A stretch of DNA of 64,000 bases from an uncultured Bacilli bacterium (GTDB lineage: Bacteria > Bacillota_I > Bacilli_A > RF39 > UBA660). Under the pieces are notes generated by a model. The model was not told the DNA's origin. It did no database searches and worked only from the letters and a program-made list of their open reading frames with translations. Of this stretch, positions 2,145 to 42,300 are shown piece by piece. The position numbers were made by a program, and so were the translations under genes. Each line of letters starts with the position of its first letter. Position 1 is the stretch's first letter. Location of the stretch: assembly GCA_934119965.1 (NCBI GenBank), contig CAKOTA010000003.1, forward strand, positions 24,488 to 88,487, read 5' to 3'.

Positions 2145-3539
2145 TTAAATTAATGACATAATTGCTACTACAATTGTGATAGCAACTAGAACAGTAAATA
2201 AAAATTTATATGTGTTTTTAAACCAGTCTTTATAATCAATATCAAAGTATTTTAATCCAACTACTAGTAATACACTTGTTGGTGCTATAAATTGTACTAA
2301 TCCGTGAATTGATTGAACAATTATCCCCATTACTGAAGCACTACTTGAATAAATACTTGTTATTGGATCATAAATTGTACTCAATAAATATGGTAAGTCA
2401 TTATATAATAAACTTCCTATAAATGAAATTAAGCCAAATGTAATTACATTAAATCCATTAGCTAATCCAAATAAATAATTAGCAATTGTAGGGAAAATTG
2501 TATAACCTGTAGTTGTTGCATTCATTACTAAGAATAATGTGTTAGCAAGTACTGCGAAAAATGCAACTGGTATTAATTGTTTTACTCCACTTATAAATGC
2601 TTCATATATTTCTCTTAAAGTTAATTTATATATTTTTCCAATTAGGAATGTTGTAATTATTAAGATAAATGCTAATTCATAATTAGTCCATTTACCCATC
2701 TCATAGATTGAACCAATTATAAGACTAAATACTGGATATCCACTTATTTTAACACTAGTAATTTTTGTATATAAATCACTAAAGAATGTTATTTTAAATA
2801 ACTCTTCCCAATTAGTCATACCAACTATTAAAACAATCATCATTATAATAAGTGCTACAACTAAACCTGTTGTTTTTTTATATTCTTTCGAACTTATTTT
2901 TTCATATAAAATAGGTTCTTCTTTTGTTTTTGATTTTGATGTTTTAATTATCTTAATTAATAATAAAACTACTACTAATACAAATAACATAATTCGATAT
3001 ATAATTGAATCATTAATATCATTTGTAAAATATGTAATATAACCTGCTACATTAAAACCATAGGTTGATACTAAATTACCAATTAAAATAGAACCGATTG
3101 TTGAAAGCATAGCTGTAAATTTACTATACCCCATCATTATTAATATTGTAGAAAATAATGGTACCAAAATCAATAATGGTAAATCTAAGGCAGTTAAACT
3201 AGATAAAATTACAAATAATAATGTTGTAATTATTAAGAAAGTTTTTTCCTTGTTTTTGAATTTTTTTACTATCTTTTCTACTAAATTTTGATAAGCACCG
3301 GTTTTATTTAAAACACCATAAAATCCTCCAATTGATAATATTATTAGTGCCGTTAAAATAAATACTGAGCTAGTAAGAGTAATAATAGGATATCTTATAA
3401 TATCAAATAATCCTATTGGTGTTATATCTCCTTTTACATATGATCCACTAGAATAATATCCAGTTGGAATAACCCAAGTAAGTACTACATAAACTAAAAA
3501 CACAATTGTTAATGCTTTGAATAAACTTTTCTTTTTCAT
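2145..3539 (-). CDS. YfcC/DcuC-like polytopic membrane transporter
   Basis: About 465 aa with many TM segments. The N-terminal ...LTWVIPTGYY motif is typical of YfcC-family carriers. The start was set at ATG 3539 after GGAGG. Confidence 0.55.
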   Translation of the reverse strand: MKKKSLFKALTIVFLVYVVLTWVIPTGYYSSGSYVKGDITPIGLFDIIRYPIITLTSSVFILTALIILSIGGFYGVLNKTGAYQNLVEKIVKKFKNKEKTFLIITTLLFVILSSLTALDLPLLILVPLFSTILIMMGYSKFTAMLSTIGSILIGNLVSTYGFNVAGYITYFTNDINDSIIYRIMLFVLVVVLLLIKIIKTSKSKTKEEPILYEKISSKEYKKTTGLVVALIIMMIVLIVGMTNWEELFKITFFSDLYTKITSVKISGYPVFSLIIGSIYEMGKWTNYELAFILIITTFLIGKIYKLTLREIYEAFISGVKQLIPVAFFAVLANTLFLVMNATTTGYTIFPTIANYLFGLANGFNVITFGLISFIGSLLYNDLPYLLSTIYDPITSIYSSSASVMGIIVQSIHGLVQFIAPTSVLLVVGLKYFDIDYKDWFKNTYKFLFTVLVAITIVVAIMSLI

Positions 3540-3647: not shown

Positions 3648-4577
3648 ATGAAATTTAAATATTCACTAGATAATAAAAGATATCACACTTTAAATTATTA
3701 TTATCAAACCAAATTCAATTCTAAGGTTTTTAAGATAAGTCTAAATGCTGGTTTTACTTGTCCCAATATAGATGGTACTAAAGGAATTGGCGGCTGTATT
3801 TATTGTTCTAATACCGGAAGTGGCGAATATGGTGGCAATGTTAATGACGATTTAATAACACAATTCAATAATATTAAAAGTATATTACATAAGAAATGGC
3901 CTAATGGAAAATATATTGGATATTTTCAAGCTCATACTAATACTTATGCTGATATTAATATTTTAAAAGAAAAATATGAAACTATTTTAAATTTGGATAA
4001 TGTTATTGGTTTGTCGATTGCTACCAGACCAGATGCAATTAGCGAAGAATGTTATAAATATTTAGATGAATTAAATAAAAAAACATTTTTAACTATTGAA
4101 CTAGGTTTGCAAACAATTCATGAAAATACTTCGAAATTAATTAATAGATGTCATTCATTAGATTGTTTTGAAAAATGTGTTCAAAGATTAAGAAATTTAA
4201 ATATAAATGTAGTAGTTCATATTATCAATGGCCTACCTTATGAAACAAAGGATATGATGATAGAAACTATCAAATATTTAAATAAATTGGATATTCAAGG
4301 AATTAAAATTCATATGTTATCAGTTTTAAAAAATACAAAATTAGAAAAATTGTATAAAGAAGAGAATTTCAAAATTTTAACTAAAGAAGAATATATTGAT
4401 ATTGTTTGTGATCAATTGGAATATTTAAGGCCAGAAATTGTAATTAATAGAATTACTGCTGATCCAAAAATTGATGATTTAATTGAACCAGAATGGTTAA
4501 TTAAAAAATTCTGTGTTTTAAATGATATTGATAAGGAATTAGTAAGAAGGGATAGTTATCAAGGTTGTAAACTTTAA
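3648..4577 (+). CDS. TIGR01212-family radical SAM protein (YtqA/YhcC-like)
   Basis: 309 aa. It has a Cys cluster (CPNIDGTKGIGGCIYC) and the length and layout typical of this family. Confidence 0.75.
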   Translation: MKFKYSLDNKRYHTLNYYYQTKFNSKVFKISLNAGFTCPNIDGTKGIGGCIYCSNTGSGEYGGNVNDDLITQFNNIKSILHKKWPNGKYIGYFQAHTNTYADINILKEKYETILNLDNVIGLSIATRPDAISEECYKYLDELNKKTFLTIELGLQTIHENTSKLINRCHSLDCFEKCVQRLRNLNINVVVHIINGLPYETKDMMIETIKYLNKLDIQGIKIHMLSVLKNTKLEKLYKEENFKILTKEEYIDIVCDQLEYLRPEIVINRITADPKIDDLIEPEWLIKKFCVLNDIDKELVRRDSYQGCKL

Positions 4578-16409: not shown

Positions 16410-16486
16410 TGGTGACCAGTACGAGATTCGAACTCGTGAATGCTGCCGTGAAAGGGCAGTGTGTTAAGCCGCTTCACCAACTGGCC
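16410..16486 (-). tRNA. tRNA-Glu (anticodon UUC), CCA encoded
   Basis: The reverse complement reads GGCCAGTTGGTGAAGCGG...CTGCC-CTTTCAC-GGCAG...GGTTCGAATC...GGTCACCA, which folds as a cloverleaf by eye. Confidence 0.9.
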
Positions 16487-16493
16487 AAAAAAA

Positions 16494-16569
16494 TGGCGCC
16501 TAATGTAGGACTCGAACCTACGACCTATCGGTTAACAGCCGAGTGCTCTACCAACTGAGCTAATTAGGC
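16494..16569 (-). tRNA. tRNA-Asn (anticodon GUU), CCA encoded
   Basis: The reverse complement reads GCCTAATTAGCTCAGTTGGTAGAGC...GGCTGTTAACCG...GGTTCGAGTCC...ATTAGGCGCCA. Confidence 0.9.
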
Positions 16570-34952: not shown

Positions 34953-35036
34953 ATGTGTAATACAGGTGTATCTGGAGCTGCAATCGTTTTAGTATTATTT
35001 ATTCTTTTAATTATTATACTAGGGGCTTATATTTAA
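34953..35036 (+). CDS. YjcZ-like tiny transmembrane (sporulation-type) peptide, 27 aa
   Basis: The sequence is MCNTGVSGAAIVLVLFILLIIILGAYI, with AAAGGAGG upstream. It is not in the ORF track because it is too short. Confidence 0.65.
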   Translation: MCNTGVSGAAIVLVLFILLIIILGAYI

Positions 35037-37835: not shown

Positions 37836-40424
37836 TTATTTTGCTTCATACCAATCATTTCCATATTCAAAATCGACTTTAAGTGGTACTGATATTTTAT
37901 AACAATTTTCCATAATGTTATCAGCTATTTCAATTACTTTATCTAGTTCTTCTTTTAAACAATCAAATACTAATTCATCGTGTACTTGTAAAATCATTTT
38001 TGATTTAATATTTTGTTTTTTAAATTCTTTATCAATTTCCACCATTGCTAACTTAATTAGATCAGCACAAGTTCCTTGAATTGGTGTATTAAGTGCAATT
38101 CTTTCACCACTTGCTTGAATATTTTTATTTTTATTAAACAGTTCTGGTATTGTTCTGATTCTACCCATCAATGTTCTTACATATCCATCAATATATGCTT
38201 TACTAATTGTTGTTTCCATATATTCTTTTATACCTGGATAAGTATTTAAGTAATTTTTGATAAATTGATCAGCTTCAGTAGTTGAAATTTTTAAATTTTC
38301 TGATAAACCATATTTACTGATTCCATAAATAATTCCAAAGTTTACGGCTTTAGCAATTCTTCTATCATTAGATGTTACTTCATCAATACTTTTATTAAAT
38401 ATATCTGATGCTGTTTTAGTATGAATATCAACATTATTTAAAAACGCATCTTTAAGAGAATCTATATTAGCCATATGAGCCATTAATCTAAGTTCAACTT
38501 GAGAATAATCACCACTAACTATTACTGAGTTTGGACTTGGAACAAAAGCTTTTCTAATCATTCTTCCATATTCATTTCTAATTGGAATATTTTGTAAGTT
38601 TGGATCAATTGATGATAATCTACCTGTTCTAGTTAATGTTTGGGTATAAATTGTATGTATTTTGCCATCTTCTAAAATATAGTTTTTTAATCCCTCAATA
38701 TAGGTTGTATATAATTTAGTAACTAATCTATATTCAATTATTTTATCAATAATTGGATGTTCATTTCTTATTTTTTCTAAGATATCTATTGATGTAGAAA
38801 AACCTTTTTTATTTTTTTTACCGTGCATCAAGTTTAATTTTTCAAATAATATTTCTCCTAATTGTTTAGGTGATGCTATATTAAATGTTGTTCCTGCTAA
38901 ATCATATATTTCTTGTTCTAAAACTTCTATTTTTCCTCTAAATTCAACTCCCATTTCATCTAAAGTATCAACATTAACATAAACTCCATTAAATTCCATA
39001 TCTCCTAAAACATAAGAAAGTGGTATTTCAATTTCTTTAAACAAATATGTTAATTCTTTTTTTTCAATATTACTATATAGTAGTTCTTTTGTATCATAAA
39101 TAAATCTAGCTTTTTTACAAGCTTCTTTGGCTGTTATTCTTGAATCACATTCTACATATATTTCTTTTGATTTTAGTTTTTTGTACATTGTATCGTAAAA
39201 TGTAATATCATAGTTTAAAGTATTTGCTAAATAAGAAACATCATCTTTTATATTATATTCAAGTAGATATCCGGCTATTTCAGCATCATAATCAATACTT
39301 CTTAATTCTTTACCTAATTTTTTTAAGATTACATAATGTTTCTTTAAATCATATGTATATTTAATATTTTCATTAATTACTTTTGGATCAAATATTTCAT
39401 ATGGAATAAAAATATTTTCTTTACTATTTGATATTGCTATTCCTAATATTTTAGACATATGATAATTATAACCTAATATTTCAATATATATGCTTGATGG
39501 TTCAGTTATATTAACTTCATCTATATTATCAATTATTTTGTAATTAAATTCTTTTTTTTCAATTTGTTTATTTTGTTTTAGAAATGAATAAAATTCTAAT
39601 TCCTCATACATTTCATTTAATTTATCTATATTTTTTTCTTTTACTTTTATATCATTTAAATTTATTTCCATTGGAACATCTTTAATGATGGTTGCTAAAT
39701 GATATGACATATAAGCATTATCTTTATCAGTTTCTAATTTTTCGCGCATTTTTGGAGTCAATTTATCTAAATTCTCATATACTCCATCTAATGAATCATA
39801 GTCTTGTAATAATTTTAAGGCTGTTTTTTCACCTATTCCTTTTACACCTGGAATATTATCGGAAGAGTCTCCCATTAAAGCTTTTAAATCAATTACTTTT
39901 ATTGGATCAATTCCATATTCATTTCTAAATGTTTGTTTATTATATCTTATATAGTCTTTTTGTTTTAATAATTTTATTTCTACTTCATCAGATATTAATT
40001 GTAATAAATCTTTATCACTACTTACGATTAATCCTTCATATTCAGGATCCATTTCGCAATATTTTGAAAATGTTCCTATGATATCATCAGCTTCATAATT
40101 ATCTATTTCATAATATTTAATTCCCATATTAGTTAATAATTCTTTTGCAACTGGAAATTGAACTTTTAATTCTTCAGGTGTTTCATCTCTTCCACCTTTA
40201 TATTCCTTATATTCATTATGTCTAAATGTTTTACCTTTATCAAAAGCTACTATCATATGTGTTGGATTTTCTTCATTTATTATTTTATTAATCATATTTA
40301 AAAATCCATATAAACCATTTGTTGGAAATCCTTTGCTATTTTTCATAAAATTTCCATTGTATGCTGTTGCATAATAACTTCTGAATAATAAGTTATTACC
40401 ATCTACCATTATTATTTTTTCCAT
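37836..40424 (-). CDS. polA: DNA polymerase I
   Basis: 862 aa with a 5' nuclease domain and Klenow-type motifs (DYSQVELRLMAH, QVHDELVF). Confidence 0.95.
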   Translation of the reverse strand: MEKIIMVDGNNLLFRSYYATAYNGNFMKNSKGFPTNGLYGFLNMINKIINEENPTHMIVAFDKGKTFRHNEYKEYKGGRDETPEELKVQFPVAKELLTNMGIKYYEIDNYEADDIIGTFSKYCEMDPEYEGLIVSSDKDLLQLISDEVEIKLLKQKDYIRYNKQTFRNEYGIDPIKVIDLKALMGDSSDNIPGVKGIGEKTALKLLQDYDSLDGVYENLDKLTPKMREKLETDKDNAYMSYHLATIIKDVPMEINLNDIKVKEKNIDKLNEMYEELEFYSFLKQNKQIEKKEFNYKIIDNIDEVNITEPSSIYIEILGYNYHMSKILGIAISNSKENIFIPYEIFDPKVINENIKYTYDLKKHYVILKKLGKELRSIDYDAEIAGYLLEYNIKDDVSYLANTLNYDITFYDTMYKKLKSKEIYVECDSRITAKEACKKARFIYDTKELLYSNIEKKELTYLFKEIEIPLSYVLGDMEFNGVYVNVDTLDEMGVEFRGKIEVLEQEIYDLAGTTFNIASPKQLGEILFEKLNLMHGKKNKKGFSTSIDILEKIRNEHPIIDKIIEYRLVTKLYTTYIEGLKNYILEDGKIHTIYTQTLTRTGRLSSIDPNLQNIPIRNEYGRMIRKAFVPSPNSVIVSGDYSQVELRLMAHMANIDSLKDAFLNNVDIHTKTASDIFNKSIDEVTSNDRRIAKAVNFGIIYGISKYGLSENLKISTTEADQFIKNYLNTYPGIKEYMETTISKAYIDGYVRTLMGRIRTIPELFNKNKNIQASGERIALNTPIQGTCADLIKLAMVEIDKEFKKQNIKSKMILQVHDELVFDCLKEELDKVIEIADNIMENCYKISVPLKVDFEYGNDWYEAK

Positions 40425-40523
40425 AATATCAACTCTCTTTTGTTTTATTATAACATATTTTAAAGTATTTTATTTAATAATTTATAATTCATTTAAATTA
40501 TAACAAAAATATTATAATATATA

Positions 40524-40551
40524 TTGATACACGAATATATGTTGCTATAAT
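40524..40551 (+). promoter_or_regulatory. Promoter of small-peptide gene, copy A (TTGATA-16-TGcTATAAT, extended -10)
   Basis: Read directly from the sequence. Copy B has the same elements at about 40957-40985 with 17-nt spacing. Confidence 0.6.
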
Positions 40552-40614
40552 ACTTATAGGAACATTTAATAGTTGGGTGATTTGCCAATCTTCTAACGAA
40601 GGGAGACTGGTAGC

Positions 40615-40698
40615 ATGAATAAGAAAGATTTTTTAATCTTATCCTTAATCATTATTATCATTCTATTAGTATTTTTACTATTTATAGTTTTAATATAA
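40615..40698 (+). CDS. 27-aa hydrophobic peptide, candidate type I toxin (copy A)
   Basis: The sequence is MNKKDFLILSLIIIIILLVFLLFIVLI, with GAAGGGAG upstream. Confidence 0.55.
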   Translation: MNKKDFLILSLIIIIILLVFLLFIVLI

Positions 40699-40702
40699 TA
40701 AG

Positions 40703-40810
40703 AAAAAATCACCTAACTCAGCAATGATTTAGGTGAAACCAAATTTATGAGGCAACACTCAATATGCGATATTGAATGTTCCTTTTTTATTTTATGTAAT
40801 GTCGCTTGAC
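40703..40810 (-). ncRNA. Predicted convergent antisense RNA (candidate antitoxin, copy A)
   Basis: A minus-strand promoter (TTGTAA-17-TATTAT) lies at 40817-40845. A hairpin (TCACCTAA/TTAGGTGA, 40709-40736) is followed by TTTTTT on the minus strand. The RNA would overlap the sense 3' UTR. Confidence 0.4.
40751..40788 (+). terminator. Rho-independent terminator of the peptide mRNA (copy A)
   Basis: GGCAACACTCAATAT-GCG-ATATTGAATGTTCC followed by TTTTTT. Confidence 0.6.
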
Positions 40811-41047
40811 ATATTCATAATATCATATTAATTAATTTTTTACAAGTTCTTCTTATGTGGATTTTTTTAATTTCACATAATTTTCTTTATATTTTAAGTA
40901 TTTTATTTAATAATTTATAATCCATTTAAATTATAACAAAAATATTATAATATATATTGATGCACGAATATATGTTTGCTATAATATTTATAGGAACATT
41001 TAATAGTTGGGTGATTTGCCAATCTTCTAACGAAGGGAGGCGATAGT

Positions 41048-41131
41048 ATGAATAAGAAAGATTTTTTAATCTTATCCTTAATCATTATTATCATTCTATT
41101 AGTATTTTTACTATTTATAGTTTTAATATAA
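41048..41131 (+). CDS. 27-aa hydrophobic peptide, candidate type I toxin (copy B, identical peptide)
   Basis: Same ORF as copy A, with GAAGGGAGG upstream. Confidence 0.55.
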   Translation: MNKKDFLILSLIIIIILLVFLLFIVLI

Positions 41132-41242
41132 TAATAAATCACCTAACCCAGCAATGATTTAGGTGACTGTCTAACTAACAAGGCAACACTCAACACGCTA
41201 ACATTAAATGTTCCTTTTTTATTTTATGTAATGTCGTTTGAC
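41131..41242 (-). ncRNA. Predicted convergent antisense RNA (copy B)
   Basis: The TTGTAA-17-TATTAT promoter is conserved at 41249-41277 and the hairpin at 41139-41166. The T-run is weaker than in copy A. Confidence 0.3.
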
Positions 41243-41373
41243 ATATTCATAATACCATATTAATCAATTTTTTACAAGTTCTTCTTATGTGGTTTTTTTA
41301 ATTTCGCATAATTTTCTTTATATTTTAAGTATTTTATTGTTTAATTTTTAAATAATAATAAAGGTGATTATTT

Positions 41374-42300
41374 ATGAAAATAAGACTTGGATATGCTTGT
41401 ATAAGTACAACCTTAGATATTACTACATCTGGTACTATTACTTATACCAATTTTCTAAAAGAAAAAAATTACAATAAAATTAATAATTTAATTACATCTA
41501 ATTTAACTAATTTAAAAGAATTATTAATTTATAATATTAAAAACAATATTCATTTTTTTAGAATGAGTTCAAATTTAATTCCTTTAGCAACTAAAGATGA
41601 TGTTTGTTTTGATTATATTAAACCATATAAAAAAAACTATAATGAACTTAGCAAAATCATAAATGACAATAATATAAGAGTTGATTTTCATTTGCCTGAG
41701 TTTTGCGTTTTAAACAGTACTTCTAAAGAAACTGTTGCTAATTCTATTAAAATAATAGAATATCATTATAATTTATTAAAAGTAATGAATATTAAAAATA
41801 AAGTTTTAGTGTTACACATAGGAAGTTCTGTGTTAGGTAAAAAAAATTCTATAACTAGATTTATCAACAATTTCAATAACCTACCCAACTATTTAAAAGA
41901 AATAATTGTTATTGAAAATGATGACAAAATTTTTAATATCGAAGACTGTTTAGAAATAAATAAAAAAACAAACATTCCTATTGTTTTAGATTATCATCAC
42001 TATATGTGTAATCCATCTGATTTAAATTTTGAAAGTATTTTCTCCACTTGGAAAACTACACCTAAAGTTCATTTTTCTAGTCCTAAAAGTAAAATTAAGA
42101 AAGAATTTAGAAGCCATAATGATTATATAAATAGTGACGATTTTATTGTTTTTTTAGATAAAATCAAGAATTTAAATTACGACATTGATATTATGATTGA
42201 AGCTAAAAAGAAAGACGAAGCTTTATTTAAATTAGTAAGAGAATTAAAATATAAGACTAATTATGATTTTATAGATGAAACTACTTTTATAATAAAATAA
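41374..42300 (+). CDS. uvdE: UV damage endonuclease UvdE
   Basis: 308 aa with a TIM-barrel UvdE-like N-terminus (IRLGYACIS). Confidence 0.75.
   Translation: MKIRLGYACISTTLDITTSGTITYTNFLKEKNYNKINNLITSNLTNLKELLIYNIKNNIHFFRMSSNLIPLATKDDVCFDYIKPYKKNYNELSKIINDNNIRVDFHLPEFCVLNSTSKETVANSIKIIEYHYNLLKVMNIKNKVLVLHIGSSVLGKKNSITRFINNFNNLPNYLKEIIVIENDDKIFNIEDCLEINKKTNIPIVLDYHHYMCNPSDLNFESIFSTWKTTPKVHFSSPKSKIKKEFRSHNDYINSDDFIVFLDKIKNLNYDIDIMIEAKKKDEALFKLVRELKYKTNYDFIDETTFIIK

Follow-up and report, generated by a model that had tools for sequence, protein, structure and literature searches.

Introduction

Toxin-antitoxin (TA) systems of type I are reported only from Proteobacteria, Firmicutes and Tenericutes and are said to be hard to find, because searches start from known families (PMC12390103). 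The size criteria applied to them are a hydrophobic open reading frame (ORF) of 20-60 aa on an mRNA of 150-400 nt, and Gram-positive families have their antisense RNA at the 3' side (PMC8594479). Here we analyse a tandemly duplicated module of this kind between polA and uvdE in 64,000 nucleotides of DNA from an uncultured Bacilli bacterium (assembly GCA_934119965.1, contig CAKOTA010000003.1, positions 24,488 to 88,487; this whole stretch is the window). Each unit holds a 27-aa ORF on a predicted RNA of ~235 nt and a predicted convergent antisense RNA, and the ORF is kept in at least 117 loci; this and the other counts of homologues below (77, 83, 117 and so on) are drawn from at least 120 loci, among the matches listed. 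The best reading of the sequence evidence is that these loci form a real, conserved family of type I TA-like modules, undescribed as far as our tools show. Like members of that class, the module has an mRNA fold that, in silico and by comparison of homologues, restrains translation through pairing of the Shine-Dalgarno sequence (SD) with an anti-SD and of the 5' end with the 3' end, and it is tandemly duplicated with a patchy, context-independent spread. It is a new family of a known kind, not a new principle.

Comparison with described systems

The nearest architecture is that of bsrG/SR4 for the 5'-3' and SD helices, and that of Fst and SprA1 for an antisense RNA that does not overlap the ORF. 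In the bsrG mRNA of the Bacillus subtilis SPbeta prophage, helix P1 joins nt 1-35 to nt 232-262, the SD lies in a 4-bp helix, and the antisense RNA SR4 binds the 3' end (PMC3834814). Our module likewise has a cis-encoded, convergent antisense RNA predicted to lie over the 3' end of the toxin mRNA, and a long 5'-3' helix closes that mRNA with the SD in a short helix, as in bsrG (PMC3834814). In silico, blocking the 3' untranslated region (UTR) cuts SD accessibility ~6-fold, which recalls the dual action of SR4. The differences are a peptide of 27 aa instead of the 38 aa of BsrG (PMC8309996), a predicted antisense RNA of ~110 nt that halts at the stop codon instead of the 183 nt of SR4, and a 5' end that pairs with the terminator's own arms, whereas P1 of bsrG lies upstream of a separate terminator, SL4. 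The sole Rfam matches to either unit are to BsrG (RF01412), aligned through the same helix between the 5' UTR and the post-stop segment. At 17.1 and 11.9 bits against a gathering threshold of 55, and with no match in 11 homologous loci, we rejected membership of that family. In the window, Rfam gave sub-threshold matches only, to BsrG and to the L20 leader, and it returned nothing in the 11 homologous loci.

Fst/RNAI-RNAII (par of pAD1) and SprA1/SprA1as share with the module a Gram-positive setting and a 3'-side antisense RNA without ORF overlap (PMC8594479), together with an SD held in an intramolecular stem-loop and contact thought to begin at terminator loops (PMC8309996). Fst also has a charged K-D near its N-terminus followed by a hydrophobic helix, and a resemblance around SLVI..IF, seen by eye, is a lead only. 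Fst homologues, too, occur in tandem (PMC2887945). In contrast to the module, the par RNAs share one bidirectional terminator and pair via 5' direct repeats outside the overlap; the RNAs predicted here have separate terminators and a perfect 3' overlap of ~90 nt. Assignment to the Fst/Ldr superfamily was rejected, as the peptide matched none of the Pfam or NCBIfam toxin models at E up to 10 and has neither the defining APxxxG motif (PMC8309996) nor a hydrophilic C-terminal tail.

The Ibs/Sib and ShoB/OhsC systems of Escherichia coli are similar in having peptides of 19-26 aa that are almost wholly hydrophobic and without a positive C-terminus (PMC8309996), and ibs-sib loci recur several times in a single intergenic region (PMC2887945). 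Their hosts are Gram-negative, however, and no sequence similarity to them was detected. The full-length mRNAs of hok/Sok and AapA1/IsoA1 are held inactive by a long-distance 5'-3' interaction, and one segment forms alternative or metastable pairings during synthesis (PMC6733600, PMC9841398), much as segment B here (defined below) pairs with either C or E. Unlike the RNA predicted here, the antisense RNAs of these two systems target the 5' part of the mRNA or overlap the ORF (PMC8594479), and activation of their mRNAs requires 3' trimming. As a Hok/Gef member the peptide was rejected, the best NCBIfam match (NF007290, HokA) being noise at 12.4 bits against a cut-off of 89 (E = 0.12).

Conserved folding of the sense RNA

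The start of the unit 1 mRNA was taken from the -10 box and the onset of conservation and pairing, and its end from the U-run. Neither the unit 1 nor the unit 2 mRNA is matched by any of 200 shuffles in folding energy (Table 1). In both, the first ~22 nt pair with the last ~30 nt, that is, with both arms of the terminator region, closing the transcript into one domain with the SD in a hairpin; in unit 2 the 5' AGGAACAUUUAAU pairs with AUUAAAUGUUCCU at 41203-41215. Among 77 homologous mRNAs, 74 have a predicted minimum free energy (MFE) fold that joins the two ends. Next to the 5':3' duplex, at -25.1 kcal/mol, the local terminator hairpin is a weak structure (family median -5.4 kcal/mol).

Covariation was scored on six arms, A to F, anchor-extracted from 77 loci (55 distinct rows, alignment A3), since the MAFFT alignment A2 mis-registers the AGTTGGGTG region. 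Structure 1 comprises A:F (AGGAACAUUUAAU:AUUGAAUGUUCCU, 13 pairs, 5 of them with double changes), B:E (GUUGGGUG:CACUCAAC, 8 pairs) and C:D (8 pairs, 97.5% paired, with a closing pair that is CG in 25 and UA in 22). Altogether 97.2% of its cells are paired and 8 pairs show double changes. None of 500 shuffles reaches the observed values for cells paired, double-change pairs and covariation score (three of five measures), and controls with slid partners are only 35-44% paired. Structure 2, in which B:C (AGUUGGGUGRNN : NNYCACCUAACU) is scored together with A:F, is 94.0% paired with 9 double-change pairs; within the 12 pairs of B:C itself 92% of cells are paired and 4 pairs show double changes, including GC:26 / AU:25 and UA:25 / AU:21. 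In the sense orientation there are 61, 55 and 65 G-U pairs, and in the antisense orientation 8, 3 and 8, implying that these helices act in the plus-strand RNA. Several compensations occur within single loci, for example AGAAACACUUGAU with AUCGAGUGUUUC in L037, and the 22-aa sub-families show the same architecture in other sequences (AGGAAUACCUAGU : ACUAGGUAUUCCU, AGGGGUG : CACCC, and the anti-SD CCUUUC : GAAAGG). The sense RNA structure is thus supported by covariation among the homologues.

Both of the 5'-3' complementarities pointed out in an earlier note on this DNA, which had proposed a duplicated type I TA-like module from the window alone, are conserved with compensatory changes. The shorter, GGAACATT (40559-40566) with AATGTTCC (40775-40782), is refined to part of the 13-bp plus 8-bp closing helix. 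The longer, a 12-bp pairing of AGTTGGGTGATT (40571-40582) with AATCACCTAACT (40707-40718), stands as a complementarity but not as the predominant fold: its segment B (GUUGGGUG) is predicted to lie on the 5' arm of the terminator, CACUCAAC, in 69 of 77 homologues and on the post-stop arm C in 3, and 40707-40718 also belongs to the post-stop hairpin. In these folding models the RNA probably adopts the 12-bp pairing transiently or as an alternative state, before transcription has reached E and F or once the 3' end has been trimmed or processed.

The SD window is paired with the conserved UUGCCAAACUU in 69 of 70 distinct leaders, and GCC:GGC covaries to ACC:GGU. As thermodynamic predictions, the probabilities that the SD core is unpaired are 0.001 in unit 1 and 0.0004 in unit 2, with a family median of 0.0046 for the full-length mRNA, compared with a median of 0.073 for ordinary genes of the window (n=24). 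When the 3' UTR is blocked, as it would be by bound antisense RNA, the family median falls to 0.0007. In most homologues RNAalifold also pairs the SD GGGAGG with CUUCCU inside the ORF, at codons I-F-L (A2 columns 70-75 with 129-134). At the equivalent window positions (40601-40606 and 40654-40662) the ORF reads AUC AUU CUA, so this second anti-SD is weakened in the window copies.

In unit 1 the sense promoter agrees with the consensus at 11 of 12 positions and has the TG of an extended -10 box, and in most homologues TTGnnn-17-TGnTATAAT lies 6-8 nt upstream of GGAAC. Taken singly, such signals carry little weight in DNA of this composition. In this 25% GC DNA, 12 promoter-like matches were seen against 13.1 expected from shuffles, and a terminator scan called none, because the stems are AT-rich. 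Since single-sequence signals are not significant alone, significance rests on conservation across the homologous loci.

A predicted convergent antisense gene

The minus strand carries TTGnnn-17-TGnTAnnnT in 74 of 83 homologous loci, and in 63 of these 74 the distance between the end of the -10 box and the complement of GGAACA, which marks the mRNA 3' end, is 34-35 nt; the convergent promoter proposed earlier is therefore kept at a fixed distance. In unit 1, the RNA predicted from it would pair with all of the toxin mRNA's 3' UTR (~90 nt) and reach as far as the stop codon. Its predicted fold has two main stem-loops, with UUUUUUCUUAUU behind the second, and a 3-bp hairpin at the 5' end. This RNA would consist mainly of sequence complementary to the sense terminator and of the post-stop hairpin, after which comes UUUUUUCUU. 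The arms of that hairpin, TCACCTAA (40709-40716) and TTAGGTGA (40729-40736), adjoin a T-run on the minus strand only (complement of 40700-40708), as the earlier note had seen, and the A-run after the stop codon from which the antisense U-run derives (AAAAGAAA) is nearly invariant in the family. Post-stop hairpin and U-run are together predicted to form the antisense terminator.

All 60 distinct homologues carry a 5' stem-loop of at least 4 bp, built from many different stems; its counterpart in the window unit is just 3 bp long. The antisense version of this stem-loop exceeds the sense version in stability by ~1.1 kcal/mol on average (32 loci against 15), a modelled strand difference that weakly favours an antisense RNA. 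Pairing of the antisense RNA in trans with the 5' UTR was rejected, amounting by inspection to 8 bp and being weaker than the 12-bp cis pairing.

We consider it very likely that the module consists of a small ORF, a structured mRNA and an antisense gene. The structural elements named in the earlier note are each conserved in ~80 distinct homologous loci of different MAG species, which supports its reading of a type I TA-like module.

In many homologues (for example L058, L079, L081, L087, L129 and L138) a further hairpin, AAAACGAC-UUUUUUACAA-GUCGUUUU, lies 60-90 nt past the sense terminator, around the antisense -35 box. It covaries (in L057, AAAAGGAAC/GUUCCUUUU), has T-runs on both sides and looks like a bidirectional terminator or insulator at the module edge. 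This hairpin is absent from both window units.

The encoded peptide

The window peptide has a short charged head, MNKKD, followed by a 22-residue hydrophobic tail. The hydrophobic helix of the family peptide contains no P or G, and the common form is without a polar tail. The 69 distinct coding sequences (CDS) encode 43 distinct peptides. ATG is invariant among them, and the stop position is fixed while the stop codons interchange (TAA 63, TAG 3, TGA 3). The commonest length is 27 aa, as in MNKKDFLILSLVIIIFLLLFLLFIVLI with GAAGGGAGGCGA in front; there are also sub-types of 22, 24, 25, 29, 30 and 33 aa, many of which end in K, KK, R or N. The 24-aa variants are three residues short of the 27-aa consensus, and paralogues of 22-33 aa retain the same head and hydrophobic tail. 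A consensus SD stands at the correct spacing from the ATG in nearly all copies. By these comparisons the ORF behaves as a coding sequence.

These features also bear on the possibility that the conserved entity is a structured non-coding RNA pair or a mobile intergenic repeat, its ORF untranslated and the frame kept by RNA constraints. Very high nucleotide conservation, a dispersed, multi-copy occurrence in variable contexts, and a dense covarying structure that lies partly within the ORF at synonymous sites (GC:50 / AU:27) are what such an element would show. An untranslated ORF would hardly be expected to keep an invariant ATG behind a well-spaced SD, to exchange one stop codon for another at a fixed position, to shorten by exactly three residues in the 24-aa variants, to retain head and tail in paralogues of different length, or to remain hydrophobic in codons 21-27, outside the search pattern. 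We regard this explanation as very improbable.

The intra-ORF structure is a small hairpin, AAGGAUU...AAUUCU (A2 columns 95-99 with 106-110; window 40625-40640). Its alternative states GC:50 / AU:27 correspond to AAG/CUA and AAA/UUA, and this covariation may be lineage-linked.

Distribution and genomic context

Homologues were collected by scanning one genome per GTDB species with a degenerate DNA pattern encoding M-[NK]-[KR]-[KR]-[DE], four NTN codons, one free codon and ten NTN codons. The pattern matched at least 120 loci, and 117 of the 120 listed are tiny ORFs of the same family; the other three (L029, L035, L094) were rejected as long, unrelated proteins. The whole unit is conserved in more than 100 species. 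Among the matches listed, almost all hosts are metagenome-assembled genomes (MAGs) titled uncultured Bacilli, Tenericutes, Mollicutes, Mycoplasma or Erysipelotrichaceae, from the gut of rabbit, deer, goat, chicken and human, ruminants thus included. Two of the host genera have names, Candidatus Onthousia and Candidatus Coprosoma, and are placed in Bacilli or Bacillota incertae sedis. The listed loci have a median GC of 26.6%, the window one of 24.9%, and the module is also found on small chromosomes of ~1.5 Mb (OZ007022.1, OZ007038.1). Seven contigs titled Muribaculaceae (L046, L071, L078, L088, L089, L102, L105) and one titled Paludibacteraceae (L093) carry the module at 24-34% GC. Such values are atypical of these families of Bacteroidales, and the bin labels are doubtful.

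The same peptide pattern had no match in 2.9 million viral contigs, and 26 viral contigs matched by a relaxed pattern were discarded, nhmmer finding the module in none of them. A blastn search of the unit against phages gave no match, and a Fusobacterium plasmid match (65 nt, 78%, E = 6e-4) was taken as noise; tblastn of the peptide against plasmids and phages also gave no match, with the low-complexity filter probably masking the query. No match to a 30-aa read-through query was found among 1.84 billion protein representatives, a collection of 15 billion proteins contains none of ten exact peptide variants, and no indexed paper has the peptide string. The peptide matches no Pfam or NCBIfam model and the units match no Rfam family, so the earlier view that the module is unannotated and belongs to no named family holds.

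Relatives of polA and sufB are found near the module in only 3 of 120 listed loci and uvdE in none, and no neighbouring gene family recurs at a fixed position around it. The position of unit 2 upstream of uvdE on the same strand would fit a leader peptide or attenuator for uvdE, and the chance-level number of promoter-like motifs would fit a chance ORF in AT-rich repeated DNA. Yet the module has a terminator of its own at its end, with a convergent promoter beyond it, and the conservation of the whole unit together with the variable neighbourhoods of the listed loci contradicts both ideas, which we consider extremely unlikely.

The family profile finds 158 module copies in 119 sequences. Direct tandem arrays of 2-4 copies occur in 29 loci, often of mixed paralogue types and sometimes with partial copies. 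Examples are L033 3465-3727 with 3916-4180, L061 1245-2206 and L148 1367-2296. One array pairs the 27-aa form with a 30-aa form, MNKKDFLILSLVVMLFVQEILMFFMICTLK, and remnants truncated at the 5' end occur in arrays as well. Promoter, 5' UTR and SD are gone from some copies (L103, L069, L135, L096), and copies in L056 and L082 have lost the 3' antisense region. A contig end lies within 300 nt of the module in 30 of 117 loci and within 600 nt in 40 of 117. By a rough estimate, a single-copy feature on contigs of tens of kb would come this close to an end far less often than 30 times. Because dispersed multi-copy repeats do this to assemblies, the enrichment suggests that the module interrupts MAG assembly and that genomes hold more copies than were counted.

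The exact 5'-UTR 23-mer of the window was found in one contig only of the JGI metagenomes, OGPT01014060.1 (L002), whose PolA is identical to that of the window at 854 of 862 positions. It has a single module copy (2648-3368) in which homology ends at ORF codon 6-7 (position 2860), followed by unrelated DNA of 29.5% GC. The break is either a rearrangement or insertion disrupting the toxin gene or a chimeric assembly. The DNA beyond it is by eye a candidate C-terminal part of an FtsX-type permease. Judged by the listed loci, the module is free-standing, multi-copy and dynamic.

Weighing the type I reading

On the structure, coding pattern and spread described above, it is likely that the module works as a toxin-antitoxin pair of type I-like character. 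Several points weigh against this reading. The coding statistics of the 69 distinct CDS (entropy 0.49/0.06/0.67 at codon positions 1/2/3; ratio of non-synonymous to synonymous change, pN/pS, of 0.20) are biased, the search pattern having required a T in the middle of 14 codons; the pattern-free codons 21-27 show the same trend, with entropies of 0.50/0.17/0.60 and residues that stay hydrophobic. The covariation partly follows two large clades, of GGGUGA and GGGUGG types, and independent events are fewer than the cell counts. All modelled states have a very low predicted SD accessibility, and the models give no translation switch. A polar or positively charged C-terminus is typical of type I toxins (PMC8309996); most 27-aa members are without one, although many paralogues do end in K, KK or R. 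Finally, peptide conservation is unusually high for a type I toxin, with identical 27-mers in many species, and this would also fit a housekeeping membrane peptide.

The last two points lead to the most substantial competing explanation, a conserved, non-toxic small membrane protein, for instance a modulator of a membrane complex, encoded by an accessory gene under the control of RNA structure and cis-antisense RNA. High cross-species conservation, a commonest form without a charged C-terminal tail and the presence of the module in chromosomes as small as ~1.5 Mb agree with such a role, and there is a precedent in a tandem family of small B. subtilis proteins, one member of which left growth going when overproduced (Fozo et al., PMC2887945). 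An SD locked so tightly would be unusual, however, for a protein needed in quantity. The module, moreover, has no conserved partner gene and no fixed location, its arrays mix paralogue types with decayed or truncated copies, and it is enriched at contig ends as multi-copy repeats are. We therefore think this explanation unlikely.

For the preferred type I reading, we propose the following mechanism. The 27-aa peptide would be a single-pass membrane toxin whose mRNA is made constitutively and kept translationally silent and stable by its closed fold. The ~110-nt antisense RNA would be the antitoxin, pairing with the ~90-nt 3' UTR to form a duplex that RNase III could take as a substrate. Since its binding would use up the segments with which the mRNA 5' end pairs, it would strip that end from the protective helix and expose it. 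Binding would also tighten SD occlusion, as has been described for SR4 on bsrG mRNA (PMC3834814). On loss of the unstable antisense RNA, the stable mRNA would yield toxin.

A further variant, which we hold to be rather doubtful, joins two ideas, namely that the closing helix is itself the intrinsic terminator and that the near-identity of the peptides across dozens of species and unrelated contexts reflects horizontal spread. The mRNA 5' end may then be the upstream arm of a hairpin that spans the whole transcript and abuts the U-run, so that termination, 5'-end protection and silencing may be one structure, opened through strand displacement by the antisense RNA. The module may in that case be a selfish or defensive element with one conserved membrane target in gut Bacilli of reduced genome.

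The family is large, with at least 117 loci in uncultured Bacilli of small genome from the gut of rabbits, ruminants, chickens and humans. Gene callers miss it because the ORF has only 84 nt, and neither Pfam, NCBIfam and Rfam nor the 15-billion-protein collection includes it. Its natural variants form an unusually rich covariation record of the folding pathway of a toxin mRNA, with three alternative partners for one 5' segment. Its value lies in breadth, host lineage and the quality of the covariation, and it might furnish RNA-device or plasmid-stabilisation tools for low-GC hosts.

Features of the window

The two units stand head-to-tail between polA and uvdE, as the earlier note had described; each is ~433 bp long and they are 96% identical over 437 alignment columns. 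The motifs that it listed (sense promoter, SD, ORF, post-stop hairpin, sense terminator, minus-strand promoter and complementarities) were all found in place (Table 1). With the family profile, nhmmer scores unit 1 at 206.9 bits (40555-40816) and unit 2 at 213.8 bits (40989-41248). The unit-junction motif ATATTTTAAGTATTTT occurs a third time at 41320-41335.

Table 1. Window coordinates of the module features and flanking genes.
Feature	Position	Strand	Details
polA	37836-40424	-	Pfam 5_3_exonuc_N and DNA_pol_A; one flank of both units
Tandem unit 1	40456-40888	+	complete module; 96% identity with unit 2
Sense promoter, unit 1	40524-40551	+	-35 TTGATA 40524-40529, 16-nt spacer, extended -10 TGcTATAAT 40543-40551
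Predicted toxin mRNA, unit 1	40558-40792	+	~235 nt; MFE -63.8 kcal/mol, z = -6.1
Closing helix, 5' strand	40558-40579	+	AGGAACAUUUAAU (A), then A-GUUGGGUG (B); covariation
Anti-SD/SD hairpin	40589-40606	+	UCUUCU 40589-40594 pairs with GGGAGA 40601-40606; seen in MFE fold
SD	40598-40605	+	GAAGGGAG; base-by-base reading
27-aa ORF, unit 1	40615-40698	+	MNKKDFLILSLIIIIILLVFLLFIVLI; candidate toxin; open reading frame including stop codon
Predicted antisense RNA, unit 1	40700-40810	-	~110 nt; -28.5 kcal/mol, z = -3.7
Post-stop hairpin (C/D)	40707-40736		RNA arms UCACCUAA 40709-40716 and UUAGGUGA 40729-40736
Sense terminator region	40756-40792	+	CACUCAAU (E, 40756-40763), AUUGAAUGUUCCU (F, 40771-40783), U-run from 40783
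Antisense promoter, unit 1	40817-40845	-	-35 TTGTAA 40845-40840, 17-nt spacer, TGa-TATTAT, -10 40822-40817
Tandem unit 2	40889-41320	+	complete module; 96% identity with unit 1
Sense promoter, unit 2	40957-40985	+	TTGATG-17-TG-c-TATAAT
Predicted toxin mRNA, unit 2	40992-41226	+	MFE -65.3 kcal/mol, z = -7.6
27-aa ORF, unit 2	41048-41131	+	open reading frame; peptide identical to MNKKDFLILSLIIIIILLVFLLFIVLI of unit 1
Predicted antisense RNA, unit 2	41132-41242	-	-28.4 kcal/mol, z = -2.4; terminator hairpin is the complement of 41139-41166
Antisense promoter, unit 2	41249-41277	-	TTGTAA-17-TG-g-TATTAT
uvdE	41374-42300	+	PF03851; other flank, with unit 2 upstream on the same strand

The window also contains two tRNA genes (16413-16569, minus strand), and in some homologous loci the module lies within a few hundred nt of tRNA gene clusters (L045 1721-2119, L090 1975-2136). 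A second tiny ORF, MCNTGVSGAAIVLVLFILLIIILGAYI (27 aa, 34953-35036, plus strand), follows a strong SD, AAAGGAGG. It matches two models below their cut-offs, YjcZ_2 (PF09680) at 19.6 against 21 bits and the YjcZ sporulation protein (TIGR01732) at 16.3 against 21.35 bits. We take the YjcZ family to be the same as a glycine- and aromatic-rich B. subtilis family treated in an earlier survey. That B. subtilis family has been discussed as a possible type I toxin candidate (Fozo et al. 2010, PMC2887945).

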